From positions 2,965-55,727 of the forward strand of contig JBMZJT010000005.1 in assembly GCA_049617695.1 (NCBI GenBank): DNA of 52,763 nt, given 5' to 3'. The DNA comes from Thermoplasmatota archaeon (GTDB lineage: Archaea; Thermoplasmatota; E2; JACPAO01; JAHFTW01). The notes beneath the pieces were generated by a model, which was given only the letters and a program-made list of their open reading frames with translations, did no database searches and was not told the DNA's origin. A program made the position numbers and the translations under genes. The first letter of the stretch is position 1; each line of letters begins with the position of its first letter. Positions 3,756-34,347 of this stretch are shown here, piece by piece.

Positions 3756-3762
3756 TGAATGC
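3756..3762 (+). repeat. Left target-site duplication TGAATGC (7 bp)
   Basis: Identical to 34341-34347; directly abuts the left terminal inverted repeat. Confidence 0.9.
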
Positions 3763-3774
3763 CTGCACTTCTCG
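3763..3774 (+). repeat. Left terminal inverted repeat CTGCACTTCTCG
   Basis: Exact reverse complement of CGAGAAGTGCAG at 34329-34340. Confidence 0.9.
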
Positions 3775-3781
3775 AAAAGGC

Positions 3782-3904
3782 TGAGGCCGTATCTTTCCTC
3801 CTGTCGGGGACCTCACAGTGATTGGTTCGTTCAAATACTACGCAGAGCAAGATCGCGCGTGGCGAGTGCATTTCCTAGCAGTTCTGTGAGGTCCGCTGAG
3901 GTTC
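3782..3904. repeat. Left subterminal TGAGG(T)/ACCTCA motifs
   Basis: TGAGG 3782, ACCTCA 3810, TGAGGT 3887 and 3897; GTGAGGTCCGCTGAGGTTC closely resembles the reverse complement of the right-end cluster (GTGAGGTCGATGAGGTTC). Confidence 0.7.
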
Positions 3905-3947
3905 AGGCGAACCTTCTGGCGGGACCGACCCGTGGTTCACCGCCGCA

Positions 3948-4982
3948 TTAGTTGATGCGCCGGTGCGCCCATGCCAAGACCCCAATCATGCCTAGCAGAG
4001 AAACGGTAGCGATGCCCGGCGATTCTTCATCCAGCGGGACTTCGGCTTCGTACAGCACGGCCATCGCCTCATCTTGGGTCAACTGGACGCCTTCGGCGTT
4101 GGCGTAGGCAAACCAGCTTTGCCGGCCGCCGATGTCGGTGGTGAAATCCAGCCGCAAGGGAGCAACGACACCATTTCCGGGCGTCAAGTCCAACGTGAAC
4201 GATGAACTGGCGCCGCCTTCGAGGCTTTCCGGATTTGGGCGCCCGTTGATTGTCCAGTTGCCCATGGAGGGCACTTGGAGCATGAAGTGCTGGCCTTGGC
4301 TGGCGAGGGTGTTGTTGACGGTGAACGTGTACGTGCCGTCCGAACCCGCGACGGCGACTTCCAGGAACTTGGCAGAGCCCGTGAGGGGGACCGTATCGAC
4401 GACACGGCCTTCGCCCATGGCGGGGAAAATCACGGTGGGGGGTGCCGAGAAGGGGATCTCTTGGCCAAGGACGGGGTCAAAGAAACCGCCCGGCGCCACA
4501 TCGCGCGGACTTCCATCAACGGAGGACAGGACGACGAGGTTTGCGACCTCATGCCCATCCCATTCGGGAATCGGAACCCATGCGTGGATTTGGAGCACAT
4601 TGCCATCCGCGATTTGGTGTTCGAGCTGTTCGAAGTCCGTGGTGACCTCGGCGCCATCGTGGGCAATCCAGCGCGTGTAGCTTTGGCCCCCAACGTCGAA
4701 GGTGAATTCCAGACCCCACGACGCGCCACCCGTCGGGCGAACGGTGCCATCGCCGGCGAAATTTCCCTTGAAGTAGACCCCGTGCGAGGCAAGAGCCGTG
4801 TTGTAGCCATCGCCCACGTAGACGTCCCAGATCTCGAATCCTTCCCACGGGAAGCTGTCCTCATGCCCCTCGAAGTCGCTGAGCGCGTACGTGTCAAACT
4901 TGTTGAGCTCGAGAGCGCCGTGCGCAGCTACGCCGGGGGCAGCCATGATGGCGAGTGCCAGGGCCATGGGCAGGATTCGCAT
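3948..4982 (-). CDS. Exported protein of unknown function with C-terminal PG-TM-basic sorting tail
   Basis: Signal peptide MRILPMAL..VAAHG (start 4982 inferred); C-terminus EESPG-hydrophobic-HRRIN. Confidence 0.8.
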   Translation of the reverse strand: MRILPMALALAIMAAPGVAAHGALELNKFDTYALSDFEGHEDSFPWEGFEIWDVYVGDGYNTALASHGVYFKGNFAGDGTVRPTGGASWGLEFTFDVGGQSYTRWIAHDGAEVTTDFEQLEHQIADGNVLQIHAWVPIPEWDGHEVANLVVLSSVDGSPRDVAPGGFFDPVLGQEIPFSAPPTVIFPAMGEGRVVDTVPLTGSAKFLEVAVAGSDGTYTFTVNNTLASQGQHFMLQVPSMGNWTINGRPNPESLEGGASSSFTLDLTPGNGVVAPLRLDFTTDIGGRQSWFAYANAEGVQLTQDEAMAVLYEAEVPLDEESPGIATVSLLGMIGVLAWAHRRIN

Positions 4983-5040
4983 ACGCGGCCATCCGCGCCC
5001 GGCCATAGAAGCTCCGGCCTCCAGAGTTCGAAGCCGCATG

Positions 5041-5487
5041 CTATCGGCGCCTCACAAGAGCGACGACGAGGGCGCCGAGGATGGCGACCATGCCGAGGCC
5101 GGGCGCACCTTCGGATTCGGGCGTCGGCGCGATGGCCTCGCCTTCCATGCCCGCAAATCGATGTGGATCGCACCAGTACGCCATCGTTGTCGTACCGGAG
5201 GGCACCGTGAATTCAATGGTCGCGTTTTCGCCGGGCTTGATGATGGGCGTCGCGACATCCACGCCTTCGAAGTGGACGTTGTGCGGCGCTGCGCCCTTGT
5301 TCTCGAGGCGAATGGAGTAGGATTGCCCCGGCTCAAGATTCAGCGAAGGGTTGCGCTCTGACAATCCTTGCAGTTGGAACCAGTATTCACCGCCGCCATC
5401 ATGGGCTTCCAGCACGATACTTTCGGCTTGGGCGCTTGCCAGCGGAGTCAGCAGGAGGATCGCGAGCCCGAGGGCGGCGAGGCGCAT
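5041..5487 (-). CDS. Surface-anchored cupredoxin (type 1 blue copper protein)
   Basis: Signal peptide; PHNV His ligand; YWCDPH..AGM Cys/His/Met loop; EGAPG-TM-RRR tail. Confidence 0.88.
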   Translation of the reverse strand: MRLAALGLAILLLTPLASAQAESIVLEAHDGGGEYWFQLQGLSERNPSLNLEPGQSYSIRLENKGAAPHNVHFEGVDVATPIIKPGENATIEFTVPSGTTTMAYWCDPHRFAGMEGEAIAPTPESEGAPGLGMVAILGALVVALVRRR

Positions 5488-5900
5488 CAGTCGCAGTTGC
5501 TCCAGAGGTGCACGGCGTCGTCGATGACGTGGACCTTGAAGTCCGGGCCCGTGCACTTTGCCGGGTCGATGCTCTTGAAATTCAGAGGGTTGTTCCCCTC
5601 AAAGACCTGAATCTTCACTGGGCCTGCCGCGGCCTTCACGGAAAATACGGACTTGAAATCGGAGTCCTTGGTGCCTTCACTTGCGGCTTGGCCAGCGGTG
5701 CTGTAGGTGCCGGAACCAAGCTCCTTGCCGTCCTGGGTCACCTTGAGCGTGATGGTGCGATCGTCTCCGTTGACGTTGTGCGCGCCCTTGATGGGCACGG
5801 TGTAGGAAGCGGCCGGCGTCGTGTCGCCCCCATCGGACGAAGCGCACCCCGCAAGAAGGAGAGAAACGAGCAGTCCAGCAACAAGCAATGGTTTGTGCAT
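5487..5900 (-). CDS. Small lipoprotein of unknown function
   Basis: ATG 5900, LLAGC lipobox; stop overlaps the start of the cupredoxin gene. Confidence 0.75.
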   Translation of the reverse strand: MHKPLLVAGLLVSLLLAGCASSDGGDTTPAASYTVPIKGAHNVNGDDRTITLKVTQDGKELGSGTYSTAGQAASEGTKDSDFKSVFSVKAAAGPVKIQVFEGNNPLNFKSIDPAKCTGPDFKVHVIDDAVHLWSNCD

Positions 5901-6037
5901 GTTCACGGCCACATGTGCCGCGTTCAACGGTCTTCGGTTCCGGGACCGGTTTTGACGTTCATGGCAACAAATCGGACAAACTTCGCATCCATCCCCCCTA
6001 CCGGCCGCTTTACGCAACTGGCTGGGTCGTGGACCTC

Positions 6038-7651
6038 ATGCGCACGCTGTTGATTACCGCCACCCTACTGACGGTCACGCTTGCCGGATGCTTTGGCTTC
6101 GACTCCGATGACGGCTTCGACTACGTCCCGGGCGAGAACTTCAAAGAAACCGGCCGAACCGTCCACCTCAAGGCGACCGTCCTTGACTTGGTGCAGAAAG
6201 AAATCTACCCAGGCATGGAGGCCAACATGTGGGCGTTCTGCTTCAAACCCGCCCGAGAAGACGACACGTACAGTGCGGCCGCCATCGAATACCTTCCCGA
6301 CCAGGAAGTGGATACTACGGAGACGGCTTGGCAAGGCACCTGCAGCACGCCCGGCCCCACGATTCGCGTCGGTCAGGGCGACAAGGTCATCGTGGACTTT
6401 GAGAACAACCACGTGCATCCGCACACCATTCACTGGCACGGCCAATACGTACCCTGGGAGAGCGATGGCGTTCCGGGTAGCACCCAGGACAGCGTCAAGC
6501 CTGGTGAATCGTTCCGCTACGAATTCATTGCAAGCCGCGCCGGCAGCCTGTGGTACCACTGCCATGTCGACACGCAGTTCCACGTCATGCAGGGTCTGTA
6601 TGGCATGTTCATCGTGGAACCCCAGGAGACCCAATGGGAGCCGGACGTCGATCGCGACGTCGTGTGGACCCTTGGCACCCTCAAGCGTGACCTGGTCGAA
6701 GCGACCCCCGAGCGCGTCGAAAACCCTCACGTCGACCACCAGAACCTGGGTGACTGCGGTGTCACGGGCGAACAGCAATGCCAGAATCCCCCCGTCGATG
6801 TCACGCCGGATACATTCCTCATCAATGGCGTCAGCTTCCCCAAGACATTGCAACGGGAAGATACCTGGATTCTCTTGGAGCCGGGCGAATCGATTCGACT
6901 CCGAATCTTGAACGCAGGCACCACCGTCGAGACCATCCACACGCACGGGCACGACATGCTTGTCACGCACATCGATGGCAACCCGCTGCATCCCAACGCG
7001 CGCTACTACGTCGATACGATTCCCATCATGCCGGCGCAGCGCATTGACGTCGCCATCGAAGGCCGCGCGGGCAACGAGGGAGTCTGGGTCGTGCATACGC
7101 ACGTCGTCGATCACGTGACCAACGACGGTCAATACCCCGGCGGCATGCTATCAAAAATTGCCTACCCCGGCTTCGAAAACGACCTCACGCCGTTCGCAGG
7201 CGTGGAACTCGCCGGCGGTCTGCCCTACACGCCCCCGATTGACTTGCCCGATGACTACGACCGTTCGACGACGCGCGGCATGGAAACGGGTGCTGAGTCC
7301 AGCGAGCAGTGGACGTTCCCGGTGGAATTGCCCTGCGCCGTCAAGAGTATCCGCTTCAACGTGGAAGCCAATTCAGTCAGCAACGCCATCCAGGCCCTCA
7401 ACGAGTTGCACCTGGAAATCTTTGGACCGGATGGCAACGAGATCGTCGAAGAAGACCTGGGAACGGCGCGCTCGTTCGAATGGATTTACGACGCGCAAAG
7501 CAGTGAGCTACACCTCGAGGAAGGGGCCTACAACGTGACGTTGTCCGGCCGTGCAGTCGACACGACCATTCGGATGACGGTCTCTGTTGACTACTACGAT
7601 TCTCTTGAAGAGATGGCCTACGATGGCAACCCATGCGACGAGGACCATTGA
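6038..7651 (+). CDS. Two-domain multicopper oxidase lipoprotein (type C-like) with extra C-terminal beta domain
   Basis: LAGC lipobox; HTIHWHG, WYHCHVDTQFHVMQGL, TIHTHG, VHTHVVDH copper motifs. Confidence 0.9.
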   Translation: MRTLLITATLLTVTLAGCFGFDSDDGFDYVPGENFKETGRTVHLKATVLDLVQKEIYPGMEANMWAFCFKPAREDDTYSAAAIEYLPDQEVDTTETAWQGTCSTPGPTIRVGQGDKVIVDFENNHVHPHTIHWHGQYVPWESDGVPGSTQDSVKPGESFRYEFIASRAGSLWYHCHVDTQFHVMQGLYGMFIVEPQETQWEPDVDRDVVWTLGTLKRDLVEATPERVENPHVDHQNLGDCGVTGEQQCQNPPVDVTPDTFLINGVSFPKTLQREDTWILLEPGESIRLRILNAGTTVETIHTHGHDMLVTHIDGNPLHPNARYYVDTIPIMPAQRIDVAIEGRAGNEGVWVVHTHVVDHVTNDGQYPGGMLSKIAYPGFENDLTPFAGVELAGGLPYTPPIDLPDDYDRSTTRGMETGAESSEQWTFPVELPCAVKSIRFNVEANSVSNAIQALNELHLEIFGPDGNEIVEEDLGTARSFEWIYDAQSSELHLEEGAYNVTLSGRAVDTTIRMTVSVDYYDSLEEMAYDGNPCDEDH

Positions 7652-8442: not shown

Positions 8443-8462
8443 CCCGTCATTGATCCCGGGAG

Positions 8463-9463: not shown

Positions 9464-10141
9464 TCATCCCTCCTGGGCTGGCCGCAAGCGGCCGTCTGCC
9501 ATCGTGTAGATGCGGTCGGCGAACACGGCCAAGCGTTCATCGTGACTCACAACGACGACCGTGCCGCCCCGGTGTGAGAAAGCGGACAACAAGGAGGCCG
9601 CACGCTTCCCGCTGGCTGTGTCCAAGTTGGCCGTCGGTTCATCGGCAAACACGACCTTCGGCCGGTGCCCGATGGCTCTGGCAATGGCAACTCGCTGTTT
9701 TTCGCCCCCGCTCAACTGGTCGGGCAAGAGGTGGGCTCGGTCCGCAAGGTCCACCGAGGAAAGGGCGTCCACGGCCATTCGGCGTGCTCGTCGGCCGCCA
9801 ATGCTGCGGAGGTTCAGTGCCACCTCGACGTTCTCGCGGGCGGTGAGGTTGGCCAATAGACGAAAGTCTTGGAAGACGAAGCCAACATTTTGGCGCCTCA
9901 TGTTGGCAAGTACCGCGCTCGATTGCCCCGTCAGCCGGGCGCCCGAGAGGCGCAATTGACCGGCATCGGGCGTCATGAGCCCCGCCAACATGGCCAATAG
10001 CGTCGTCTTGCCACTTCCGCTCGGGCCCTGGATGAGGACAAACTCCCCGGGCCGCGCAATGAAATCTGCGCCGTCGACCGCCCGCGTTCCGGTTCGACCG
10101 CGGCCGTAGCGCTTGCTCAAGCCCTTGGCCTGCAACGTCAT
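9464..10141 (-). CDS. ABC transporter ATP-binding protein (LolD/MacB type)
   Basis: GPSGSGKT, LSGGEKQRVAIARA, FADEPTANLD, VSHD; ATG 10141 overlaps the permease stop. Confidence 0.93.
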   Translation of the reverse strand: MTLQAKGLSKRYGRGRTGTRAVDGADFIARPGEFVLIQGPSGSGKTTLLAMLAGLMTPDAGQLRLSGARLTGQSSAVLANMRRQNVGFVFQDFRLLANLTARENVEVALNLRSIGGRRARRMAVDALSSVDLADRAHLLPDQLSGGEKQRVAIARAIGHRPKVVFADEPTANLDTASGKRAASLLSAFSHRGGTVVVVSHDERLAVFADRIYTMADGRLRPAQEG

Positions 10142-11241
10142 ACCCGAAACACCTCCGCAGGATCCATCGATGCAATGCGCCGAACCGGCAGCAACGTCGC
10201 CACCCCGGTAATGAGGACGGCCTCGACCACGACCCATCCAATACCCGCCCACGTGATGTCCGCGCGCATTTGCGGAATCACCCACTCCGCGATGGCATCG
10301 GCCAGGAAGGTCAGGGCAACGCCCATCTTCGTTCCCAGCGCGGTCGAAACGATGCTGTACTGAAGGACCATGCCGCGTAGCTTCCGCTGCGGCGCGCCCA
10401 TGGCCTTGAGGACGCCGTACTCCGCCCGCCGCTCCATCGTCGCGGTATACACGGTCAATCCAACGACGACGGCGCCGACAACAAAACCGAGGACCATTAC
10501 GGTGGCAATGACCGGCAAGAACGCTTCACGGCTGCCCCGTGAATTGACCTCCGAAAATTCATCCCGCGTCCAGGTCTTGCTGGCCGGAATCAATTCCTGG
10601 ACCGCCCGGATGGTGGATCCTGGGCTGCCATCAACTTCCAACAGGTAGTAGTTCACGACGTCCGGTGATGGTGCAAGTGCGCGGGCCGCGTCCACGTGAA
10701 TGAATGCGAAGTTGCTGAACAGCGTGCTGGCACCCCTGCTGATGCCGACGACTTCGAACGTCGCATTGCCAAGCGTCAGGTCATCACCAATTTCGACGCC
10801 TTCGACGGATGCAAAAACGCGGTCGACGACGATGTCATTGCCGCCTTCAACGAGGCGCCCCGAATGCATGCTCCAAGGCCCGCCCATCCCGGTGGCGGGG
10901 TCATAGCCGACCAAGAACAAGTCTGCACCCTCACCGACGGAGGCCACATGCACGGATTTCCCCATCAACGGTGATGCAGCAACCACGCCGGGGAGCGCAG
11001 CTAGCTTGCCCGCAAGATCTCCTGGCAGGGTGCTTTGTCCGTGGAACAAGTCCCGGGTGTCTTCCTGGGTCACCCAGAGATCGGCTCCGGCGTTGTCAAC
11101 GAAGGCGCCAGCTTGCGCGATTTGGCCGACATAGGTCGCGTGAAGAAACAGCATGAGCAGCACGGCGAACGCTAGGCCCCCGGCGCTGATGGCGAGTCGC
11201 CACGGATCGCGCCACAAGTTGCGCGCCGCGATGTTCACCAT
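10138..11241 (-). CDS. ABC transporter permease (FtsX/MacB-like)
   Basis: N-terminal TM, large extracytoplasmic loop, ERRAEYGVLKAMGA motif, three C-terminal TMs, DPAEVFR end. Confidence 0.88.
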   Translation of the reverse strand: MVNIAARNLWRDPWRLAISAGGLAFAVLLMLFLHATYVGQIAQAGAFVDNAGADLWVTQEDTRDLFHGQSTLPGDLAGKLAALPGVVAASPLMGKSVHVASVGEGADLFLVGYDPATGMGGPWSMHSGRLVEGGNDIVVDRVFASVEGVEIGDDLTLGNATFEVVGISRGASTLFSNFAFIHVDAARALAPSPDVVNYYLLEVDGSPGSTIRAVQELIPASKTWTRDEFSEVNSRGSREAFLPVIATVMVLGFVVGAVVVGLTVYTATMERRAEYGVLKAMGAPQRKLRGMVLQYSIVSTALGTKMGVALTFLADAIAEWVIPQMRADITWAGIGWVVVEAVLITGVATLLPVRRIASMDPAEVFRV

Positions 11242-11796
11242 CTACGGGGACTGCTTCTTGGCCCACTGCGCAATGCCGATGCCGACGATGAGGCCGCCAA
11301 GCACCCACATGACACCGCGGTTGAAACTCGAGCCGGAATCGCCGTGGACGTGGTCATGTCCATCGCCCTCCACGGTGGATCCGGCGCCGGCAATGTGGGC
11401 GGCATGCTCCTCTGTGGTTTCCCCAATCTTGTGCATCTGCGCCCCCTGGTTCACCCAAGTCACCGTGTCGCCCACCATGATCGTCAACTCTTCAGGGTCG
11501 AAGTCCCATTCCTCAAAGTTCTCCGGCTCGATGACATTGATCGTGTGATTCTGGGGGGGAGATCCGTCGGAGGCAACAACCACAATTTTGGCTTGCATCC
11601 AAGGGTGAGGGTGGCAATGGTACTCGAAGGTCATCTCTTCGATGAACGTGTGGCTCCAGGTTTCGTTTGCCAACATGTCGTCGCCCAGGACGCCGCCATG
11701 TTCATCGTCGCTCGACGCAGAATCATCGTGCCCGGGCCCAGCGGCGACATTGATTGCCACGGCAAGAAGAGCGATCGGAATCCATCGAAGTTGCAT
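11242..11796 (-). CDS. Membrane-anchored cupredoxin, apparently circularly permuted
   Basis: Signal peptide; YHCHPHPWM precedes FDPEELTIMVGDTVTWVN...MH; His-rich linker and C-terminal TM. Confidence 0.8.
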   Translation of the reverse strand: MQLRWIPIALLAVAINVAAGPGHDDSASSDDEHGGVLGDDMLANETWSHTFIEEMTFEYHCHPHPWMQAKIVVVASDGSPPQNHTINVIEPENFEEWDFDPEELTIMVGDTVTWVNQGAQMHKIGETTEEHAAHIAGAGSTVEGDGHDHVHGDSGSSFNRGVMWVLGGLIVGIGIAQWAKKQSP

Positions 11797-12179: not shown

Positions 12180-12995
12180 ATGGAAGAGGACCTGCGTTCC
12201 CGCATCTTGCGCCTCGTGGAGCGGTACCCCGGCCTCCACTTGCGTGAGATTCAACGCCGCGCAGACTGTAGTCCCATGTTGGCCGAATACCACTTGAACG
12301 TCCTGGAAAAATTGGGCCTCGTCACAAGCACCTCGCATGGACGCTACCGTGACTTCTTCCCCGCCCGACACGAGGCGCTGCCCCTGGATTCAACCGCGAA
12401 GAAGTGGCTGGGACTGTTGCGCCGTCCGCCCATCCTCGCCATCGGCCTACTGCTGTTGGAGCGCGGATCCATGCGGCCAATCCAGATTGCGAGGGAACTC
12501 GGCTTGGCGAGCAGCACCGCCAGCTACCAAGTCCGTGTGGGTGTGGAGGCCGGCCTGCTCATCCAAGAGGACATTGATGGAAGGAACCTGCTGCGGCTCG
12601 CAGACCCCGCACGTGTCCTGGCGTTGCTTCAGGCATACCACCCAACGCCCGACGCGGTGTCCGACTATGCCTCCTTGTGGAGTCGGATCTTTGCGCGGCC
12701 CGCGCCAGCTCAACCGGAGACCGTCCCCCTGGAATCCACCGCGGGGGTTCCAGACGAGGTCCGGGATGCGTCGCGAGCGGTGCAAACCGTCTTCGCCGCT
12801 CTCCAGGCCGGGCCCATGACGCAGAAAGATTTGTGCCTCGAAACTGGACATGCCAGGCGAACCGTGTACGGTGCCCTGCAAAAGTTGGACGCCATGGGCC
12901 TGCTCACGTCACACGTCCATTTGCTTGATACCCGGCAAACACGGTACTGGCTCAAGGACGAATACCGCGCTGCCGACTCGCAACCGAAGCCGTAA
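12180..12995 (+). CDS. Multi-winged-helix transcriptional regulator
   Basis: RILRLVERYPGLHLREIQR..YHL.VLE, second HTH (IARELGLASSTASY), third HTH (TQKDLCLETGHARRTVY..L...DTRQTRY). Confidence 0.85.
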   Translation: MEEDLRSRILRLVERYPGLHLREIQRRADCSPMLAEYHLNVLEKLGLVTSTSHGRYRDFFPARHEALPLDSTAKKWLGLLRRPPILAIGLLLLERGSMRPIQIARELGLASSTASYQVRVGVEAGLLIQEDIDGRNLLRLADPARVLALLQAYHPTPDAVSDYASLWSRIFARPAPAQPETVPLESTAGVPDEVRDASRAVQTVFAALQAGPMTQKDLCLETGHARRTVYGALQKLDAMGLLTSHVHLLDTRQTRYWLKDEYRAADSQPKP

Positions 12996-14032: not shown

Positions 14033-14422
14033 TTACGCCGCGTCCGCCGGCGGGTGATTTTCGGCCCATTCGATGAGTGGCACGAGTGCCGCACGTAGGG
14101 ATGTTCCCGCGTCAGTAAGTCGATACGACACGGCCGGCGGCGATTGGTCGGGGTCCACGGTGCGCACGGCGAGGCTCTTCTCTTGCAGTTCAGACAAGGC
14201 CCCTGAAAGGGCGCGCGGACTGATACCTGGAATGGCCTTCTTTGCCGCGCTGAAGCGCACCTCTGGAAAGTTGCCCAGGATGCCAATGACCAGCAGCACC
14301 CATCGTTTGCTGATGAGTTGAAGCGCTCCTTCGAGCGGGTCGATGCAATACGTGCGGCCGTCGACGACGATATTGCAAGCATCTTCGCGCGCCATGGGTA
14401 TGGGTTCGGTCGGTGTAACCAT
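14033..14422 (-). CDS. HxlR-family winged-helix regulator
   Basis: C.DPLEGALQLISKRWVL.., RFS, IPGISPRALSGALSEL, PPAVSYRLT.AG..L; start may be 14395. Confidence 0.88.
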   Translation of the reverse strand: MVTPTEPIPMAREDACNIVVDGRTYCIDPLEGALQLISKRWVLLVIGILGNFPEVRFSAAKKAIPGISPRALSGALSELQEKSLAVRTVDPDQSPPAVSYRLTDAGTSLRAALVPLIEWAENHPPADAA

Positions 14423-14469: not shown

Positions 14470-14673
14470 ATGTTCATGGACCTCGTTCTGAAAACGACTG
14501 TCACTTGCAACACCTGCAACCACCAATTTCCCGCAACCATGCCGGAGGATTCCTGTCAGCAAGCCATCGACTGCCCGGCTTGCAATTACCGGCTGGTCAG
14601 AGAAGCGCCCCATTGCTGCGTCTTCTGCACACATGCCGAGCACAAATGCCCGCCCGAGCAGGTGAGCGCATGA
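14470..14673 (+). CDS. GDCCVxC-family small Cys-rich metal-binding protein
   Basis: TC..C.H....MP.DSC....CP.C......HCCVFC.....CPPEQ pattern; this family often sits in mer loci. Confidence 0.82.
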   Translation: MFMDLVLKTTVTCNTCNHQFPATMPEDSCQQAIDCPACNYRLVREAPHCCVFCTHAEHKCPPEQVSA

Positions 14674-19074: not shown

Positions 19075-19124
19075 TGTGCGCCACGACTCCCCTGTTGACT
19101 TAGGCGTGATGCTAAGGGAAGGGT

Positions 19125-20790: not shown

Positions 20791-20794
20791 TTCC

Positions 20795-24043: not shown

Positions 24044-24045
24044 CC

Positions 24046-24420
24046 ATGGTCGTTATCTCCGTCAGTCTCACAAGCGATGAACTCCACAATTTCGACGCCG
24101 TCGTCGAGCATGTCGGCTACGACAGCCGGAGCAGTGCCATCCGTGATGCTTTGCACCACTTCATCGCGGAACACCGCCTCGAATTCAAGGAAGCCACCGA
24201 CGTCGTCCTGACGCTCGCATACGATGCAGAACGCCGGCAAGATCAGGTCCACGAACTGGTCCACGACCACCAGGACATCATCCAAACCAGCTTGCACAAC
24301 CACCGCGGCTCGCGGTGCCTGGACGTCTTGGTCGTCCACGGTGAAGGAAATCAGATTCACGAACTCATGGACAAGCTCACGCGAATCAAAGATGTCCGCG
24401 TGACCATCAGTTCACTATAG
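24046..24420 (+). CDS. nikR: NikR-like ribbon-helix-helix metal-responsive regulator
   Basis: VISVSL...FD....GY.SRSSAIRDAL RHH domain; LHNH....CL.V metal-binding ACT domain. Confidence 0.82.
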   Translation: MVVISVSLTSDELHNFDAVVEHVGYDSRSSAIRDALHHFIAEHRLEFKEATDVVLTLAYDAERRQDQVHELVHDHQDIIQTSLHNHRGSRCLDVLVVHGEGNQIHELMDKLTRIKDVRVTISSL

Positions 24421-24461: not shown

Positions 24462-25073
24462 TCAAGATGGCACGGAGCCTAGGGCGTTCCTGAGAACCTT
24501 GTAAGCGGACCGGGAAAACAGCAACAAAAGGACAGATGCAATCAAGAGGTCAGGCCACCCAGCGTCGAACACGACCACCATGGCCGCAGCAACGATGACC
24601 GCCATGCCCTCGTAGATGTCGTTGCGGCTGCACTCCCAGGCCGAGGCCATGTTGATGTCGCCGTGCCGATAGGGCGTGATCAATGCCAGGCTCACGGCGT
24701 TCGCGGCCAGGTTGGCCACAGCGATGGCACCCATTGCCTCAAAGATGGGCACTGCAGGGTGCAGAAGGCGCCACCCGATCTGGATGGCCACGGCGACAGC
24801 CGCCAAGGCAATGAGGGTGCCCTTCACAATGGCCACGCGGCGCTGCGCAGCCACGGATGCCCCCACCACGGCGAGGCTCAAACCATACGTGAGCGCGTCG
24901 CCAAAATTGTCCAGTCCTCCGGAGAGCAACGATGTGGACTTGCTCACGATGGACCCGAAGACGACCATTCCGAACGTCGTCACGTTGACGGCAAGGACAA
25001 TCGTGAGCACACGGCGCTGCTTTGCATGCAACTCGCCCAGGTCCATGACGGGATCACAACAGGCATCAGCCAC
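24462..25073 (-). CDS. Short cation diffusion facilitator (CDF)-family transporter
   Basis: GTG start inferred (MADACCD); S.SLL...LD.FGDA.TY and SAWECSRND motifs; about six TMs. Confidence 0.82.
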   Translation of the reverse strand: MADACCDPVMDLGELHAKQRRVLTIVLAVNVTTFGMVVFGSIVSKSTSLLSGGLDNFGDALTYGLSLAVVGASVAAQRRVAIVKGTLIALAAVAVAIQIGWRLLHPAVPIFEAMGAIAVANLAANAVSLALITPYRHGDINMASAWECSRNDIYEGMAVIVAAAMVVVFDAGWPDLLIASVLLLLFSRSAYKVLRNALGSVPS

Positions 25074-25178
25074 ACGCTCGAACGAATGCACTCCTTCATA
25101 ATCCGTGACCAACCGGTTGGCAACGTACGGCGAAAATCTTAGCAATCACGATATGAACTCGGCAACGTGGCCACGATT

Positions 25179-25643
25179 ATGCACATCGGCGCTTCAGTGG
25201 CGTTCTGTTTGCTGATCGCCCCAATCGCTATTGCCCACGGCGGCGAGGAGGAAACCGTCCTGTTCGTCGAAGCGTTCGACGATGATGGATTCTACTTCAA
25301 AATCGAAGGCTACGACGGTAAGAACCCGACCATCGTCTTCCAACCCGACACCACGTACCACATCAACTTCTACAACCGAGGAACAACGCCCCACAACTTC
25401 CGCGTCCACGAACTTCCAGACTTCGGCACGCCCATGATTGAGGGGGGAGAATCGGCGCAACTCGAATTCACGGTACCAACGTCCGGACTTGACGCGTATT
25501 GGTGCGACCCCCACCGTGATCTCGGAATGGAAGGTAAGGCCGTGAAGAACCCGGACGACTTGAAGGAGGATGCGCCTGGATGGGGCATCATCAGCGCCCT
25601 AGGCGCCTTGGGGCTCGTTATGATGATTCGCCGCCGCGGTTAG
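25179..25643 (+). CDS. Surface-anchored cupredoxin, paralog of 5041-5487
   Basis: NPT, PHNF, YWCDPH..LGM; EDAPG-TM-RRRG. Confidence 0.88.
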   Translation: MHIGASVAFCLLIAPIAIAHGGEEETVLFVEAFDDDGFYFKIEGYDGKNPTIVFQPDTTYHINFYNRGTTPHNFRVHELPDFGTPMIEGGESAQLEFTVPTSGLDAYWCDPHRDLGMEGKAVKNPDDLKEDAPGWGIISALGALGLVMMIRRRG

Positions 25644-25680: not shown

Positions 25681-28143
25681 GTGCCGCACCATGCTCATGA
25701 TCACGCACACGCCGACCACGAGCATGGCGAACACGCACACCGCTCCGTTTCACAACAGTGCGATCAGGACGCCAGTGGCACGTCGCTGAGAATCAACATT
25801 CCCGTCATCCTACCGGAAGGCTCTGATTGCGACGCCTGCGGCGAACGCATCGTAGAAGCCATGCAGGGTCGACGCGGCGTCCAAGATGTCCACCTGGACC
25901 GAGAGAACGACGCCGTGGTGCTGTGCCTTCACTACGACCCCAACCTACTCACCCTTGAAGCCCTCGAGCGGCAAGTCGAAGCCGTCGGCGGCCAAATCGG
26001 TACACAGTTCCAGCACCGCACCTGGATGGTGCGCGACATGGATTGCGCTGACTGTGCCATGACCATCGAGCACGTGATCGGGCGCCTCGACGGCGTGCAA
26101 TCCGTCGTCGTCAACTACGCAGCAGGGAAGATGCGCGTCGAATTCGACGGCAAGGCGATCCATGCCCGAGCGATCCAGAAAAAGGTCCAATGGCTTGGCT
26201 ACGATGTCCAGGAACCTTCCCACGGTCACGGCCATGGCGACCACGATCATGACCACGCCCACGGTGCCGGCCTCAAAGTCGCTATCCTGAGCGGCGTCTT
26301 CCTCGCGCTGGGCTTCCTCGGAGAGACCTTCACGGATCTCCCCTTCCGCTACTTGCTACCACTCTATCTTGGCGCGTACCTCACGGGCGGCTACGACGCG
26401 ACCCGGCATGGCGTCAAGGCAGCCATCAAACTCCGCTTCGACATAGAATTCCTGATGGTCGTCGCGGCCATCGGCGCGGCCATCCTTGGCGAATGGGCAG
26501 AAGGCGCACTGCTTCTCTTCCTGTTCAGCCTCGGCCACGCACTGGAGCACTCGGCCATGGACAAAGCCCGCCATGCCATGCATGCACTGGGCGAAATCTC
26601 ACCAAAGACCGCACGCGTATATCGCGATGGCACAGAAATGGAGCTCCCCGTAGCCCAAGTGCAACGAGGAGACGAAGTCATCGTCCGCCCCGGGGAACGC
26701 CTGCCGGTGGACGGCATCGTGATCCGAGGCCATAGCAGCTTGGATCAATCCGCAATTACGGGAGAAAGCATCCCCGTCGAAGCCAGGGCCGAGGCATCCG
26801 TGTTTGCAGGATCCGTCAATGGCGATGGAAGTCTGCGCATTCGGACAACCAAGTTGTCCAGTGAATCCACGATGGCGCGCATCGTCAAGCTCGTGGAAGA
26901 GGCGCAGACCCAGAAATCCTCCACGCAGCGATTCACGGAGCGATTCAGCCGCATCTTTGTCCCGAGCAGCCTCGTGTTCGTGGCATTGGTCATCGCCGTG
27001 CCAGCCATCCTGAACATGGCACCTGCGACCGCAATAGGTAGTCGCATCGGGCTTCCGATATCCGAATCATTCCTGCGTGGGATGACCATCCTCGTTGCCG
27101 CCAGCCCATGCGCCCTGGCGATCAGCACGCCGGCCGCGGTCCTGAGCGGCATCGCGCAAGCTGCACGCAGCGGCGTCCTCGTCAAGGGAGGAGCCCACCT
27201 CGAAAACCTGGGAACCGTGCACACGGTGGCCTTTGACAAAACCGGCACCCTGACCATGGGTCGACCAGAGGTCACCGACCTCGCTCCCTTGGATACCAAC
27301 GAAGTTGAACTCTTGACGTACGCGGCGGCAGCAGAGGAACATTCCTCTCATCCACTGGCAAAAGCCATCACGGCGCGCGCCGAATCTCTCGTCTTGCCGG
27401 AGGCAGGGGACCTTCAGACACATGCCGGCCGAGGCATCGAAACCCTCGTTGACGGGGAACCAATCCTCGTTGGGAATCTCAAGCTCTTCCCCGATGCGCC
27501 CGACCAAATCCAGTTGGATGTCGACCGATTCGAGGAGGAAGGAAAGACCACGATGGTCGTCAAACGTGGCGATCGCTTCCTTGGCGTCATCGCCGTAGCA
27601 GATCAAGTACGCCCAGAAGCTGCGCAAGTCTTGGCCAAATTGAAGGCCGGCGGCGTGCAACGCATCGTCATGCTCACCGGCGACCACGAACGCGTCGCCA
27701 AGGTCATCGCCAACCAAGTCGGCGTCACTGAGGTCCGCGCGAACCTGCTACCCGAAGACAAGGTCGCGGCCATCAAGGAATTGGCCCGGGATGGCCCCGT
27801 CGCCATGGTAGGCGACGGCATCAACGATGCACCTGCCATGGCCAACGCAACAGTCGGCATTGCCATGGCCGCCCATGGGACCGATGTCGCCATGGAAACC
27901 GCCGATGTCGCGCTCATGGCAGACAGCCTCGACAAACTGCCCTTCGCCCTCGGCGTCAGCAAATCCAGCCGGCGCATCATCCAACAGAATCTCTTCGTCA
28001 GCCTCGGGACCATTGCACTGCTCATTCCATTCGCTTTGTTTGGATGGGCTGGAATCGGGATTGCCATCATCTTCCACGAAGGCAGCACACTATTGGTCGT
28101 CGGCAATGCACTGCGCCTTCTGCGATACGGAGCCACCTCATGA
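25681..28143 (+). CDS. Heavy-metal-translocating P1B-type ATPase (Zn/Cd/Co; SPC/HEGST signature)
   Basis: His-rich N-terminus, HMA CDAC and CADC, TGES, SPCAL, DKTGT, HP, GDGINDAP, HEGST. Confidence 0.95.
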   Translation: MPHHAHDHAHADHEHGEHAHRSVSQQCDQDASGTSLRINIPVILPEGSDCDACGERIVEAMQGRRGVQDVHLDRENDAVVLCLHYDPNLLTLEALERQVEAVGGQIGTQFQHRTWMVRDMDCADCAMTIEHVIGRLDGVQSVVVNYAAGKMRVEFDGKAIHARAIQKKVQWLGYDVQEPSHGHGHGDHDHDHAHGAGLKVAILSGVFLALGFLGETFTDLPFRYLLPLYLGAYLTGGYDATRHGVKAAIKLRFDIEFLMVVAAIGAAILGEWAEGALLLFLFSLGHALEHSAMDKARHAMHALGEISPKTARVYRDGTEMELPVAQVQRGDEVIVRPGERLPVDGIVIRGHSSLDQSAITGESIPVEARAEASVFAGSVNGDGSLRIRTTKLSSESTMARIVKLVEEAQTQKSSTQRFTERFSRIFVPSSLVFVALVIAVPAILNMAPATAIGSRIGLPISESFLRGMTILVAASPCALAISTPAAVLSGIAQAARSGVLVKGGAHLENLGTVHTVAFDKTGTLTMGRPEVTDLAPLDTNEVELLTYAAAAEEHSSHPLAKAITARAESLVLPEAGDLQTHAGRGIETLVDGEPILVGNLKLFPDAPDQIQLDVDRFEEEGKTTMVVKRGDRFLGVIAVADQVRPEAAQVLAKLKAGGVQRIVMLTGDHERVAKVIANQVGVTEVRANLLPEDKVAAIKELARDGPVAMVGDGINDAPAMANATVGIAMAAHGTDVAMETADVALMADSLDKLPFALGVSKSSRRIIQQNLFVSLGTIALLIPFALFGWAGIGIAIIFHEGSTLLVVGNALRLLRYGATS

Positions 28144-29564
28144 AACACCTGTCCATCCTGCTTCTCTTCCTGCTTCTTACCCCTGCGGCGGTAGCCCAGG
28201 ATGATGGCCATGATCACGACGAGCCGGGCCTGACGGAGGAAGTCCGAACTACTCCGCCGTTGTTCTTGATGGCCGACGGCTCGTTGGTCGAGCAGGGCGG
28301 CAGCGGCCAGGAATGCCTGGCAGTGGATGCGCAGAGTGGCACGCAAACAGCATCGTTTGCAACAACGCTGGCAAACGCAACCCACCACATTGAATCGAGC
28401 ACCGTATCGCTCTCCTTGGCGTTCACAGCCAACAGCAACCCGGGCAGTGGCTTCCGTCTCGATGCAGCGCTTCAGCAAGGAAACGCGCCTTCGTCATCGG
28501 CGAGCAGGACGTATGGGCCGGGTGCCTCCGTCGGTAGCCCCATCAACCTCGCCTTTGACGTCGATGACGCAGAGCCAAGCCTCGGAGCAACGACGCTCAC
28601 ACTCACCCTTACTCCCACGGCCATCGGCGGCGCCTTGCCCGGCGTCCTGGACGTTGGCATCCAGTGCGGCCCCGAATCCAGGCTGCACGCATTCGATTAC
28701 GCAGTCTTCACGGAATCAGAAGGAGACCCCTTCGATGACGGCCACGGGCACGACGAGGAAGGCGAAATCAAGACGCTTTACGTCATCCTGATTGCAATCG
28801 GAGCGGCCATCGTCACGTTCCTCGCCGGCATTCTTCCGTTGATCGGCAAGGCGCTTGCCCCGCAACGGCTCCACCTCTTCCTCGGCATCACGGCAGGCCT
28901 CCTGCTCTCCATCGCGATGGTGGACTTGATTCCGGAGGCCATCCAGGAAGGAGGGGGAAGTGTCGCATGGACGGTTGCTTTGGGCATCTTGATCCTCTAC
29001 GGAGTCAAGCACCTAGCTGGGGAGACGCACAGCCACGCCGACCACAGTGAACACCCCAGCCACCATGCGCCAGATGCGGATGATGAGCACACCGACCAAC
29101 ATGCAGGACGCTTCGCAGTGGTCGCCTTCGGTGCGCTGTTGTTTCATCGCCTCGTAGATGGTTTGGCACTTCCCGGTGCATTCGCTGCGGGAGGCGATGT
29201 CGGGTTTGCAGCTAGCAGCGCCATCCTCATCCATCAATTCCCGGACGGCCTCGCAGCCGCGAGCATATTCCTAGGCGCCGGATGGCACCGCAAGAAGATT
29301 CTCCTCGCCGTGGCCGGCCTCGCGTTTGCAACACCACTGGGAAGTCTAGCCGGCCTTGCCTTTGCCGGCATCGACGGCGCACTCCCACACCTATTGGCTC
29401 TGGCGGCTGCGACATTCATCTTCATCGCACTAGCCGAACTTCTGCCCGAACTGCGAGCAAAGCAGTACCGATTCATCGTCGTCGTCGGTTTCCTACTCGG
29501 CTACGGCTTGACGTTTGGAATCGAACTCTTTGCCGAGCTGTTTGGAGGAGGACACGGCCATTGA
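28140..29564 (+). CDS. ZIP-family metal transporter with N-terminal exported domain
   Basis: Signal peptide, ~190-aa soluble domain, then AG.LL..A..DLIPEA, His-rich loop, H.LVDG, HQFPDG, FIFIAL.ELLPE. Confidence 0.85.
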   Translation: MKHLSILLLFLLLTPAAVAQDDGHDHDEPGLTEEVRTTPPLFLMADGSLVEQGGSGQECLAVDAQSGTQTASFATTLANATHHIESSTVSLSLAFTANSNPGSGFRLDAALQQGNAPSSSASRTYGPGASVGSPINLAFDVDDAEPSLGATTLTLTLTPTAIGGALPGVLDVGIQCGPESRLHAFDYAVFTESEGDPFDDGHGHDEEGEIKTLYVILIAIGAAIVTFLAGILPLIGKALAPQRLHLFLGITAGLLLSIAMVDLIPEAIQEGGGSVAWTVALGILILYGVKHLAGETHSHADHSEHPSHHAPDADDEHTDQHAGRFAVVAFGALLFHRLVDGLALPGAFAAGGDVGFAASSAILIHQFPDGLAAASIFLGAGWHRKKILLAVAGLAFATPLGSLAGLAFAGIDGALPHLLALAAATFIFIALAELLPELRAKQYRFIVVVGFLLGYGLTFGIELFAELFGGGHGH

Positions 29565-32024: not shown

Positions 32025-32627
32025 GTGGAAGCCAGAACCCCGACAAAAGACTTGCCAAACGGCAACGGACGCGTTCCAGCCGTTACCATCAACATCTTCC
32101 TTGACAGCGGCGGCGCCACCGTCGCGCAAGGCCCTCCTGTTGAACCTCCCCGTCCGAGCCCTGAACCGGCCATCGATGATTTCCTGAACGGAGAAACCAG
32201 CGAGCCGGAAGACGACGCTGATGAGATCATCCTGCGCGAGCGGTTCTATGCTCTCGACATCGAGGCGGAGCACGTCATCGTTGCCCTCATGGATCAGCCA
32301 GGTCGATTCACCGTCAACCAAATCTGGGCAAAGCTACGCGAATACTGGGATACGGAAGACCTCTGGACGCCAGAAACGTGGGCCGCGGGAATCAAGCGAA
32401 GTACCGGCGGCATGAAACTGGAGCCGCGGTTCAGCTCGGCAGAAGACGCGGGCCGCCCCATCCCCAAGGCGATCGACCCAAGTGGCCTCCGGGAACGCCT
32501 TCGCAAAGCAATCAACAACGCGGCCATCCTGGAACACGGCAAGCCCGTTGATGTGTACCAAGAACCCGGTGGACAAGGCCGTGAGACTGTGTATGTCGTG
32601 ACCGCCCTGGGAGACGAGGAGGAATGA
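32025..32627 (+). CDS. Hypothetical protein with possible winged helix
   Basis: Pro/acidic N-terminal linker; ALMDQPGRFTVNQIW...LRERLRKAI...ETVY. Confidence 0.6.
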   Translation: MEARTPTKDLPNGNGRVPAVTINIFLDSGGATVAQGPPVEPPRPSPEPAIDDFLNGETSEPEDDADEIILRERFYALDIEAEHVIVALMDQPGRFTVNQIWAKLREYWDTEDLWTPETWAAGIKRSTGGMKLEPRFSSAEDAGRPIPKAIDPSGLRERLRKAINNAAILEHGKPVDVYQEPGGQGRETVYVVTALGDEEE

Positions 32628-32978
32628 ATGCCGCCTGCTCCCGACATGGATCGGTTCACCATGGAAGCCGTGGTTGACGTGCTCATTCACCACCCCGGCT
32701 ACCATACCGTCGTATCCACGGCGACCCGCGTCCTAACGGAACGCAAGTACGACGACATCCTACTATGGTTCACCACCAGGCGCTCCGGCGAACACGGGAC
32801 ACTGCTCCACCGAACTCCAGGAGAAATCAAAGCCGTTGAGCGTCGTCGCCGACGCGTCAACGACCTGCTATCCGCAGGCGTCCTCTACGTGGATCACAAG
32901 CGCAACTGGGTTGGCGAGCGCGTCCATGCCCGCCACCAGCAGGAAATCACGTTCCTGACGAAGCGAGTCCAGAAATGA
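32628..32978 (+). CDS. Hypothetical basic protein, possible winged helix, coupled to the transposase
   Basis: Abuts the upstream stop; VLIHHPGYHTV...VNDLLSAGVLYVD; stop overlaps the transposase ATG. Confidence 0.6.
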   Translation: MPPAPDMDRFTMEAVVDVLIHHPGYHTVVSTATRVLTERKYDDILLWFTTRRSGEHGTLLHRTPGEIKAVERRRRRVNDLLSAGVLYVDHKRNWVGERVHARHQQEITFLTKRVQK

Positions 32979-34288
32979 ACCCCTGGAGCAAGCTGTTTCG
33001 CAGCATCGTCGTCTGCATCACACTTCGCTGCGGGGCCCCAAAACCCACAGAATTGGCTCGCGGCGCCATTCATGCTGGGCAATCAGGTGCGAACTGGTCC
33101 CATGTAGAATTGGCAGGCCTCGCCTGCTCCCGGCCATCCAGTACCACGAGCACATGGCTGGCCAAACTCAGCGAACGCCCCCTCGAGGCGCTTTCATGGT
33201 GCCTGCAACTCGTTGCACGAGCCTTGGTCGCATGGGTGTCCGCGGACCATGATCACTACGTCCTCAGCGTCGACCAACACCTCGAAGAGCACCGCGACCC
33301 GCCCCCGAAGGAGCGACGCAGCAAGAACCCGGAGGCATTGCACAACTTCCTCGTGAAGAACACCAAAAAGCAAGGCGGCACCAAATGGGCACTACCATTG
33401 GCCTGCGGCCTCCTGATCTGGAAGCACAAGGGCCACGAATACCGATGGCCAATCTTTCTTCGATTCCTGCTCCCCACGCAGTACATTGCCACGAACCACC
33501 ACGCCATTTACACGCAAGCCATGGATGCAGTCGGCATCACGGCCACGCTCAGTGCCGACGCCGGATTCTCCTACCGCAGCATCGTCGAGGCATGGCTCGG
33601 GGAGGGGCGGCGCTTCGTCATTCGCGTGGCGTTTCGACGAAGCGGATGGCAATTCTTCTACGACGTCCAAGGGAAGCGACACAAAGTCACCACGTACATG
33701 CGGCGATTCGCCGAGCGCAAACCGCTTCCCCCGCCGTTCATCGTGAAAGTTCGTGGAACTCCCGTTCTGCGAAGCCGACGCATCAAATCGATACGGGGCC
33801 GCTTCTGGCCGGACGGCCCCCTTGTGAACATCACCTTCGTGGCTGCATACGTCGTTGTGAATGGCAAGCTGGTCTTCAGTGAGAAGCACTGCCACGTGTA
33901 CGTATCTCACAAAGGGCTTAGCGGGGAGGCGGCTCGGCAAGTTTTCCGGAGGAGGTGGCCGGTGGAGGTGTACTTCCGACAGGGGCGAGACGATCGCCCT
34001 GATTGGCGTGCCCACAATCGCAATCGATTCGAATTGTACATCGGACTCCACATGCTTCGAACCGCTCTTGGTTTGCTCATCCAAGCCACGATGACGGGCC
34101 AGGGCATTGAGGAACTTGGCAAGCACAAGGTTGGTCGATTCGGCATCCCGCTCGTCACGCGGTCCCTCCTGCACCACCACGAACACGGTCGAGTTGTGCG
34201 CAAACACGCGCCGGATCCGCCGCCGATCCCCATCGACGATGCGGTTCGCGAGAGCACGCAGCGCTGGCTCATGCTGCAGCAGGATTGA
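32975..34288 (+). CDS. DDE transposase, IS4 superfamily (ISH3/IS701-like)
   Basis: LSVD (D100), ADAGF (D195), FVIR, FRRRWPVEVYFRQGR (E331; variant of Y-2-R-3-E-6-K). Confidence 0.85.
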   Translation: MNPWSKLFRSIVVCITLRCGAPKPTELARGAIHAGQSGANWSHVELAGLACSRPSSTTSTWLAKLSERPLEALSWCLQLVARALVAWVSADHDHYVLSVDQHLEEHRDPPPKERRSKNPEALHNFLVKNTKKQGGTKWALPLACGLLIWKHKGHEYRWPIFLRFLLPTQYIATNHHAIYTQAMDAVGITATLSADAGFSYRSIVEAWLGEGRRFVIRVAFRRSGWQFFYDVQGKRHKVTTYMRRFAERKPLPPPFIVKVRGTPVLRSRRIKSIRGRFWPDGPLVNITFVAAYVVVNGKLVFSEKHCHVYVSHKGLSGEAARQVFRRRWPVEVYFRQGRDDRPDWRAHNRNRFELYIGLHMLRTALGLLIQATMTGQGIEELGKHKVGRFGIPLVTRSLLHHHEHGRVVRKHAPDPPPIPIDDAVRESTQRWLMLQQD

Positions 34289-34291
34289 GCA

Positions 34292-34321
34292 ACCTCAGAA
34301 CCTCATCGACCTCACTGAGGT
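34292..34321. repeat. Right subterminal ACCTCA x3 plus TGAGGT
   Basis: ACCTCA at 34292, 34300, 34309 and TGAGGT at 34316 (palindrome ACCTCA-C-TGAGGT). Confidence 0.75.
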
Positions 34322-34328
34322 AGCCCGA

Positions 34329-34340
34329 CGAGAAGTGCAG
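34329..34340 (-). repeat. Right terminal inverted repeat CGAGAAGTGCAG
   Basis: Exact reverse complement of 3763-3774. Confidence 0.9.
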
Positions 34341-34347
34341 TGAATGC
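34341..34347 (+). repeat. Right target-site duplication TGAATGC
   Basis: Identical to 3756-3762; abuts the right TIR. Confidence 0.9.

Follow-up and report, generated by a model that had tools for sequence, protein, structure and literature searches.

Can a single transposase move some 30 kb of metal genes as one unit in an archaeal chromosome? The question is raised by a 52.8-kb stretch of DNA (the window), positions 2965-55727 of contig C5 of a metagenome-assembled genome (MAG; 85% complete, 1.67 Mb in 72 contigs). An earlier note on this DNA had proposed that a non-composite unit transposon with about 26 kb of cargo and one terminal transposase had inserted here recently. We likewise read positions 3763-34340 as one non-composite (unit) transposon with metal cargo and a single terminal Tn5-like DDE transposase, inserted with duplication of TGAATGC, and give this reading a probability of roughly 0.87. 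It is supported by the ends of the element, by an empty site found in other sequencing runs and by a second left junction in those same runs.

Element boundaries and terminal repeats

The junctions of the element lie exactly where the earlier note had placed them, with TGAATGC followed by CTGCACTTCTCG at 3756-3774 and CGAGAAGTGCAG followed by TGAATGC at 34329-34347. They form a perfect 12-bp terminal inverted repeat (TIR) pair, 3763-3774 on the plus strand and 34329-34340 on the minus strand, with an exact 7-bp direct duplication outside it, and bound an element of 30,578 bp. When one mismatch was allowed, the TIR 12-mer was present at two places only in the window, the two element ends. The window holds 319 perfect 12-bp inverted pairs, a single one of which has a flanking direct repeat of at least 7 bp, and some such combination also arose in 8 of 300 order-2 Markov simulations of the window. 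By themselves, therefore, the TIRs and the duplication are suggestive (p of about 0.03 window-wide). A chance origin of the pair is nevertheless untenable, because one TIR arm adjoins the sole transposase gene copy of the genome, because 100-bp intervals with at least three ACCTCA/TGAGGT hexamers sit only at the element ends, and because contigs from other runs break exactly at 3762/3763.

The ACCTCA/TGAGGT hexamer has 38 copies in the window, with seven of these in the terminal 200 bp on the left and 100 bp on the right, and across the whole 52.8 kb the intervals dense in it are exclusive to the two ends. Three of the four window copies of the octamer GACCTCAC are also located at the ends. 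These putative subterminal repeats link the two ends, the right one beside the transposase and the left one far from it, on grounds separate from the 12-bp TIR. G+C content is even across both junctions and no tRNA gene was found in the window. An exact copy of the TIR 12-mer on contig C66 of the same genome sits within a ribosomal-protein gene and was set aside as a chance match.

The same repeats bear on a simpler explanation, an ordinary short insertion sequence (IS) of about 1.5-3.3 kb that consists of the transposase with or without the two open reading frames (ORFs) upstream of it, the 12-mer at 3763 being a chance match or a relic and the metal genes being chromosomal. Such an IS would agree with the normal size of IS4-family elements (1.2-5.4 kb in Table 1 of PMC2266710) and with the abundance of perfect 12-bp inverted pairs in the window. 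The 7-bp duplication, however, flanks the distal pair, the subterminal repeats are common to both distal ends, and the window offers no other TIR-like 12-mer at up to one mismatch.

Empty site and second insertion site in another population

The Logan index was queried with the first 10 kb of the window, and contigs of runs X2, X4, X5 and X9 were then placed on window positions 1-20000. The query was found in X1, the probable source run, in three runs of another study (X2-X4; 0.85-0.89 of sampled words) and in eight marine runs from two further studies (0.18 of sampled words each). One contig each from X2 (3597 nt) and X4 (3610 nt) matches 2500-3762 and 2487-3762, respectively, with 0 differences, and then runs into GGCGCAACGGTGAAATGGTTGGAGCGCAGA; this 30-letter string has a single occurrence in the window, at 34348, directly after the right-hand TGAATGC. 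These contigs are the exact empty site, with one TGAATGC and 3762 joined to 34348, that had been predicted, and they come from an independent study. The sequences part at 3762/3763 and resume at 34348. None of the X2 and X4 pieces listed bridges 3762/3763, and we do not claim that the occupied form is absent from these runs.

A further contig in X2 and X4 matches the window from 3763 inward and is preceded by 30 letters foreign to the C5 flank. Those letters are an exact stretch of host MAG contig C6, ending at 30610. In the host MAG the C6 site is uninterrupted; it falls within the 97 bp that separate two divergent genes, whose starts are at 30553 (minus strand) and 30651 (plus strand). Depth over 3763-20000 was 15.7-31 in both X2 and X4. 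Within the same species, the element is thus at C5 in one population, and another population has C5 empty and, at C6, at least the left end with the first part of the cargo.

The short IS is already contradicted by the empty-site contigs, which join 3762 straight to 34348; the presence of the 3763 end at another locus in X2 and X4, and two relatives whose ends lie 12-17 kb apart (see below), also argue against it, and we regard it as highly improbable.

The flank is identical between the two populations (0 differences over 423-2209 and 2500-3762) and for most pieces of the cargo the difference is 0-1 bases, from which we conclude that the insertions are recent, as had been proposed from the window. 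The stretch 4099-6795 is an exception, with up to about 4% divergence and a 117-nt block (5804-5922) replaced by 114 other letters, which suggests recombination within the element at this point.

The transposase and its neighboring ORFs

The transposase is encoded in one open frame without a frameshift and is transcribed toward the right end; its ORF bears out the earlier statement that it stops 52 bp inside that end. Its sole Pfam match was to DDE_Tnp_1 (PF01609) and was marginal (24.4 bits against a cut-off of 23). No NCBIfam family was matched at E <= 0.01, in a collection that presumably includes curated models for IS4, ISH3, IS701 and IS1634 transposases, and phmmer against PDB sequences gave 0 hits. 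An alignment of 11 sequences shows no variation at D100, D195, R327 and E331 and almost none at W328. The shared motif is Y/F-x2-R-x3-E, which in the window protein reads F324-x2-R327-x3-E331-x6-R338; the lysine position of the YREK signature is not conserved, and the relatives keep the Y, R and E. The spacing of D100/D195/E331 may be compared with that of the Tn5 triad, D97/D188/E326.

An AlphaFold model from the single sequence (pLDDT 35.5) was replaced by one built from the 11-sequence alignment, with a pLDDT of 74 and a pTM of 0.75. In a Foldseek search of the PDB the five best-ranked matches were chains of Tn5 transposase (E 2.2e-11 to 4.1e-10; TM 0.50-0.55), followed by the Tn5 inhibitor and then piggyBac. 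As modeled, the protein is a Tn5-like DDE transposase of a family outside the curated models. The assignment to the IS4 superfamily made in the earlier note stands with regard to the fold, the catalytic triad and the weak DDE_Tnp_1 match, whereas the NCBIfam result and the YREK lysine do not bear it out.

Neither the transposase gene nor either end region has a second copy in the MAG. Searches by tblastn with the family found no other transposase copy or remnant in the window (best E 0.11) or in the two relatives' elements described below, and none was found among the 48 window ORFs scanned, a set short of some small ORFs; within this scope the element does carry the only transposase of the window. 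A composite transposon is not indicated, as the genome has a single transposase copy and no remnant near the left end (best E 0.11). What is present is the arrangement of a unit transposon, namely one TIR pair around a transposase and passengers, a target-site duplication (TSD) and no flanking IS copies. Mobility of the whole is indicated by the vacant C5 site and the additional left junction in X2 and X4.

Two small ORFs of 200 and 116 aa precede the transposase gene. Neither matched a Pfam or NCBIfam family, their atlas scores (0.80-0.88) were below a meaningful level, and no counterpart was detected beside the distant relatives. They may be accessory or regulatory, and nothing supports a specific role.

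Related elements

Genome G025, from the same order as the host, has three full-length transposase copies with 24-26% identity to that of the window. In each of these copies a conserved terminus follows the stop at a distance of about 185-200 bp; it reads ...CCGAAAAGTCCTG (...GTCGTG in one copy) and resembles the ...CGAGAAGTGCAG of the window, and the ends beside the relatives' transposases read CGAAAAGTCCTG or CGAAAAGTCGTG.

These termini help to decide whether the transposase moves the block at all. An integrase encoded elsewhere, or homologous or illegitimate recombination, might do so instead, with the transposase as a passenger or a dead gene; the protein is single-copy and very divergent, and its activity is predicted from its sequence. 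However, the termini beside such distant homologs (CGAAAAGTCCTG/CGAAAAGTCGTG) resemble the window TIR, so that the ends belong with the enzyme family. The transposase ORF is also intact with an invariant DDE triad, a 7-bp duplication together with TIRs is a signature of DDE transposition and not of site-specific integration, and the two insertion sites have no long shared homology. Transport by other machinery thus seems most unlikely, and the unit transposon moved by its own transposase is retained.

Partner ends were defined for two of the G025 copies, giving elements on contigs C24 and C38 (Table 1). The distal ends of both are an identical 16-mer, CAGCACTTTTCGGGTC, with no other exact copy in G025, and the transposase lies at one end of each. 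The earlier note had proposed to look for homologs with similar ends 10-40 kb apart and a different 7-bp TSD: the C24 element is of this kind, and the C38 element agrees in spacing, its duplication being of 6 bp. Conversely, homologs confined to ordinary IS of about 1.5 kb, which would have spoken against the proposal, were not seen, the two definable relatives being elements of 12.3 and 16.9 kb. Because the long layout recurs in relatives whose cargo is unrelated, carriage of cargo by one transposase looks like a family trait, as far as the copies could be resolved.

The cargo of the C38 element (4112-16387) is an Hma-type set (HmaA 2.6e-55, HmaB 5.1e-39, HmaC 2.4e-96) and that of the C24 element (9341-14603) a ubiquitin-type module with JAB and E1-like proteins; both are anti-virus defence cargo. 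G025 further contains an end-like 17-mer without a detected transposase (C57:10148-10164) and a C-terminal transposase fragment (C19:14877-15314), which may be relics or chance matches. The exact 12-mer of the window also occurs on C86 (contig segment 1501-1516) within apparent coding sequence, and may likewise be a relic or a chance match; as a candidate end (C86:9127) it was treated as chance, since its flank does not fit the duplication on C76 and a reversed-pattern control gave 2 hits. Three metagenome loci from a scan with the G025-type end pattern were likewise rejected as chance: none has a transposase of the family, and about two were expected by a rough estimate.

Proposed mechanism and points against it

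The transposase would bind the 12-bp termini, probably the ACCTCA repeats too, and synapse two ends lying 30.6 kb apart. Excision would follow a Tn5/Tn10-type cut-and-paste route and integration would use 7-bp staggered cuts. Tn5 and Tn10 themselves act by hairpin-mediated cut-and-paste.

Several points weigh against a unit transposon of this kind. The cut-and-paste route is predicted from the fold. The second-site contig extends to about 3978, within the first gene of the cargo, so that about 216 bp of the element are physically linked to C6; for cargo beyond about 3978 the case at C6 is the even depth, the Logan contigs being fragmented. With the left 20 kb alone compared, the right junction at C6 and the presence of the transposase in X2 and X4 were not observed. 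The element is single-copy in a MAG that is 85% complete. Among the relatives, the duplication of the C38 element is just 6 bp and of low complexity (GCGGCG), and the far end was not found for four copies (in G161, G013, G022 and on G025:C76). The C76 contig stops 9.3 kb from the near end with no partner end within it; for G161:C17, G013:C24 and G022:C26, scans for TIRs with TSDs and blastn-short remained at background level and an end-motif scan was unconvincing, one candidate end in G022 having no partner. The layout with large cargo was consequently seen in three of the seven full-length copies examined, and was contradicted by none.

Distribution of the transposase family

HMMER, run exhaustively against 1.84 billion representative proteins, returned 4 hits at E <= 1e-3, consisting of one 97%-identical cluster (P0001, 35 contigs) and three proteins with 22-25% identity. 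Matches were found in 4 of 197 genomes in a class-level search and in 5 of 401 in a phylum-level profile search, with the host MAG included in both counts; those of the phylum-level search all belong to two families of the same order. A word-based protein search retrieved P0001 alone, its profile version P0001 and P0005 alone, and a single-protein search for related loci the G025 contig itself and nothing else. No relatives of the window transposase were found in genome contigs or JGI metagenome contigs, and neither this transposase nor that of the C24 element had a tblastn match in plasmids. Judged by these sequence searches, the transposase family is new, rare, order-restricted and archaeal.

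Comparison with known systems

According to the IS4 survey (PMC2266710), the family has the subgroups IS10, IS50 and ISPepr1, sizes of 1.2-5.4 kb and duplications of about 7-13 bp, with 4-6 bp in emerging families. The element resembles IS50/Tn5 and IS4 in having a single DDE transposase without a frameshift, Tn5 as the best structural match and the Y/F-x2-R-x3-E motif. Its ends start with 5'-CT like those of IS10, IS50 and ISPepr1, and the 7-bp duplication falls within the ISPepr1 range of 7-8 bp (Table 1 of PMC2266710). The duplications of 7 bp (window and C24 element) are also within the IS4 range, that of the C38 element being 6 bp. By contrast, the complete Y-(2)-R-(3)-E-(6)-K signature is not present in the window transposase, there is no sequence-level match to curated transposase models, and the sizes (30,578 bp here, 12,334 and 16,933 bp in the relatives) exceed 1.2-5.4 kb. 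By the rule of De Palmenaer et al. 2008 (PMC2266710), a group whose YREK is variant does not belong to IS4 proper and is counted with the 'emerging families'. Unlike in Tn5 and Tn10, the cargo lies inside one end pair and not between two IS copies, and the host is archaeal.

Other cargo-bearing elements share the layout and differ in the enzyme. Transporter IS (ISfinder/TnCentral), described as restricted to the IS1595 and IS66 families, also have one transposase and one inverted-repeat pair with passengers inside, whereas here the enzyme is Tn5-like and the cargo far larger. Elements of the Tn3 family are likewise non-composite; they combine short TIRs with one large DDE transposase and carry adaptive genes, for example for metal resistance, over tens of kb. 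Tn3 elements have a transposase of about 1000 aa from another family, TIRs of about 38 bp, 5-bp duplications and a resolvase with a res site, and transpose replicatively. A transposase, TIRs and a duplication length of the Tn3 type are absent here, as is a resolvase among the scanned ORFs of the element.

In archaea, Tn7-like cargo elements with multi-protein machinery and mostly defence-related cargo have been reported in a 2025 preprint (10.1101/2025.07.27.667033). These make use of att sites and depend on TnsB, TnsC and TniQ, TnsA being optional, in contrast to the one Tn5-like gene and at least two intergenic targets found here; no TnsB, TnsC or TniQ family was matched among the scanned element ORFs, and a TniB hit belongs to an Orc1/Cdc6 gene outside the element. 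Casposons use a Cas1 integrase, carry PolB and have TIRs and TSDs, and aloposons, called transposons (PMC8813620), integrate at tRNA genes and encode giant proteins. Both are multi-gene archaeal elements like the present one, and neither employs a DDE Tn5-like transposase.

A 2019 survey (Krupovic et al.; PMC6563490) described passenger-carrying DNA transposons as common in bacteria and undetected in archaea; the archaeal examples reported since then are all Tn7-like. In the literature covered, which omits most subscription journals, we found no archaeal unit transposon of the Tn5/IS4-like type whose cargo exceeds 10 kb. The view of the earlier note that this architecture was not known at this size in archaea thus holds for Tn5/IS4-like elements and has been overtaken for cargo transposons in general by the Tn7-like reports. 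New here are the enzyme family, the cargo size for DDE chemistry and the host domain; the chemistry and the logic are those of known DDE transposons.

We lean towards a so far undescribed family of 'giant' unit transposons, archaeal and Tn5-like, with the present element as its founding member. In this family a single, highly divergent DDE transposase, possibly with two small ORFs, would pair ends 12-30 kb apart and shuttle adaptive islands (copper/metal, and Hma or ubiquitin-like defence) from one short divergent promoter region to another in the chromosomes of marine archaea. Archaea would then own a functional counterpart, built on IS4/Tn5 chemistry, of the bacterial Tn3/Tn21-type resistance transposons, and the known cargo size for this chemistry would be extended several-fold. 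It would also be a population-level case, of a kind other than the Tn7-like one, of 30 kb of metal-resistance genes being moved within one archaeal species by a single Tn5-like enzyme, and a concrete vehicle for the horizontal spread of adaptive islands in uncultured marine archaea. As a compact one-protein system with defined 12-bp ends, it would be a candidate tool for the insertion of large cargo in archaeal genetics.

Cargo genes

The cargo is about 26 kb of predicted copper/metal-homeostasis genes, roughly 25-30 by ORF picking (Table 1). Overall it comprises three multicopper oxidases, three cupredoxins, an ABC/FtsX pair, a CopA-like ATPase, cation diffusion facilitator and ZIP transporters, regulators of NikR, HxlR and MarR type and a MerB-domain protein. 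The ORF of the MerB-domain protein overlaps a longer familyless ORF (14941-15834) in another frame, and its gene model is uncertain.

Table 1. Features of the element and of two related elements; coordinates without a contig name are window positions
Feature	Coordinates	Strand	Evidence or remarks
Left target-site duplication TGAATGC	3756..3762	.	one copy in X2/X4 empty-site contigs
Left TIR CTGCACTTCTCG	3763..3774	+	X2/X4 contigs start match exactly at 3763 after foreign flank
Left non-coding subterminal region	3775..3947	.	ACCTCA/TGAGGT at 3810, 3887, 3897; GACCTCAC at 3809, 3886
First cargo gene, 363 aa, no family	3948..5039	-	truncated paralogous segment at 16182-16471 (direct repeat D1, 83% identity)
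Cupredoxin (plastocyanin/azurin-type, copper-binding)	5041..5556	-	PF00127, E 7.6e-6
Multicopper oxidase 1	5888..7651	+	PF07732, E 1.3e-30; PF07731; PF00394
ABC ATPase (9464-10285) and MacB/FtsX-type permease (10138-11241)	9464..11241	-	family scan
Cupredoxin	11242..11796	-	PF00127, E 2.9e-8
Winged-helix (MarR/ArsR-type) regulator	12180..12995	+	family scan
HxlR-type regulator	14033..14422	-	PF01638, E 1.3e-16
MerB (alkylmercury lyase)-domain protein	14505..15278	+	PF03243, E 2.2e-12
Multicopper oxidase 2, inverted paralog of oxidase 1	17425..19128	-	inverted repeats I1-I3, 70-81% identity
Multicopper oxidase 3	20720..22060	+	family scan
NikR-type metal-responsive regulator	23926..24420	+	PF08753, E 6.3e-14
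Cation diffusion facilitator (cation efflux)	24462..25145	-	PF01545
Cupredoxin	25167..25643	+	PF00127
Heavy-metal P-type ATPase with HMA domain (CopA-like)	25681..28143	+	PF00122, E 8.9e-52; PF00403, E 2.5e-21
ZIP-family metal transporter	28044..29564	+	PF02535, E 1.6e-27
ORF, 200 aa, no family	32025..32627	+	first of three-gene string ending in transposase; stop abuts next start
ORF, 116 aa, no family	32628..32978	+	overlaps transposase start by 4 nt
Putative Tn5-like DDE transposase, 437 aa (D100, D195, E331)	32975..34288	+	PF01609, fold model
Right subterminal region	34289..34328	.	ACCTCA/TGAGGT at 34292, 34300, 34309, 34316
Right TIR (CGAGAAGTGCAG on + strand)	34329..34340	-	same 12-mer search; resembles relatives' ends
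Right target-site duplication TGAATGC	34341..34347	.	sequence
G025:C24 element	C24:6089-18422		12,334 bp; exact 7-bp duplication GCGCCCA; JAB peptidase, E1-like enzyme, unknowns
G025:C38 element	C38:1634-18566		16,933 bp; 6-bp duplication GCGGCG; Hma-type defence set (SNF2/PLD helicase, methylase, AAA+ ATPase)

Three pairs of cargo segments are paralogous with 70-83% identity (3954-4243 and 16182-16471; 6324-7195 and 17896-18770; 13422-13711 and 16699-16988), one of them direct and the others inverted, and they include two of the three multicopper oxidases. From its sequence the cargo looks put together from duplicated copper modules.

Contigs of 33.4 kb and 52.7 kb from marine runs X5 and X9, of two other studies, match 3981-15856 at about 92-93% identity. 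The similarity begins at 3981 and not at 3763, and blocks are replaced at 8376/8512 (2242 nt) and 14425/14965 (3919 nt). We read the X5/X9 sequence as a related copper island, from another organism or a different context, and as a possible source of the cargo. Parts of 1-3980 and of the region beyond 16.7 kb were without cover in X5 and X9, from which nothing is drawn.

Such a mosaic could mean that the element originated as a short IS into which a metal island was later inserted or in which one was built by recombination, its 30-kb size being an accident of one lineage and the unit now moving whole; this would concern how the element arose and not what it is today. The paralogous modules (3954-4243 with 16182-16471 and 6324-7195 with 17896-18770), the confinement of the 92-93% identical island to 3981-15856, and the divergence of 4099-6795 between populations against 0-1 bases elsewhere are all consistent with this origin. 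Yet no integrase, second end pair or internal duplication indicating a secondary insertion was seen among the scanned ORFs, the long layout is shared by relatives with other cargo, and no short form of any family member was found, four copies being without a defined far end. We consider this origin unlikely, though less so than either of the alternatives above, and prefer a unit transposon whose family seems to carry large cargo as a trait.

Host genome and insertion site

The host MAG is of archaeal origin: it contains ribosomal protein S8e, a family found solely in the 4 archaeal genomes among 14 controls. To the left of the element are genes for a beta-propeller protein, a BolA-like protein and a Cys/Met-metabolism PLP enzyme (minus strand); the last probably starts with the TTG at 3748, at a distance of 8 bp from the duplication. 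The right flank starts with a lipoprotein-like gene (start GTG 34357 or ATG 34387), followed by genes for a histidine kinase, Orc1/Cdc6, a family-B DNA polymerase, an EVE-domain protein and an ABC transporter, and then an aminotransferase, an EamA transporter and a class-I tRNA synthetase. The insertion thus lies in a 23-53-bp spacer between the divergent PLP-enzyme and lipoprotein-like genes, in keeping with the short divergent intergenic region that the earlier note expected to remain on removal of the element. The left-flank gene has about 64-72% identity to its counterparts in GTDB relatives (65-69% for the best 10 places) and the right-flank gene was not found in them; a comparison of the empty site with reference genomes is therefore impossible.

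Both insertion sites in the species are very short spacers between divergent genes, of 23-53 bp at C5 and 97 bp at C6. The DNA to the right of each duplication also opens alike (GGCGCAAC and GGCCCAAG), which with n = 2 may be chance or a target preference. A preference for short divergent spacers is, with the same n = 2, a hint and no finding. At C5 the insertion cuts both neighboring genes off from their native upstream DNA. About 4 kb to the right of the element, the Orc1/Cdc6 gene (38208-39440) is directly followed by that of the family-B DNA polymerase (39471-42425), and the insertion may be close to a replication origin.

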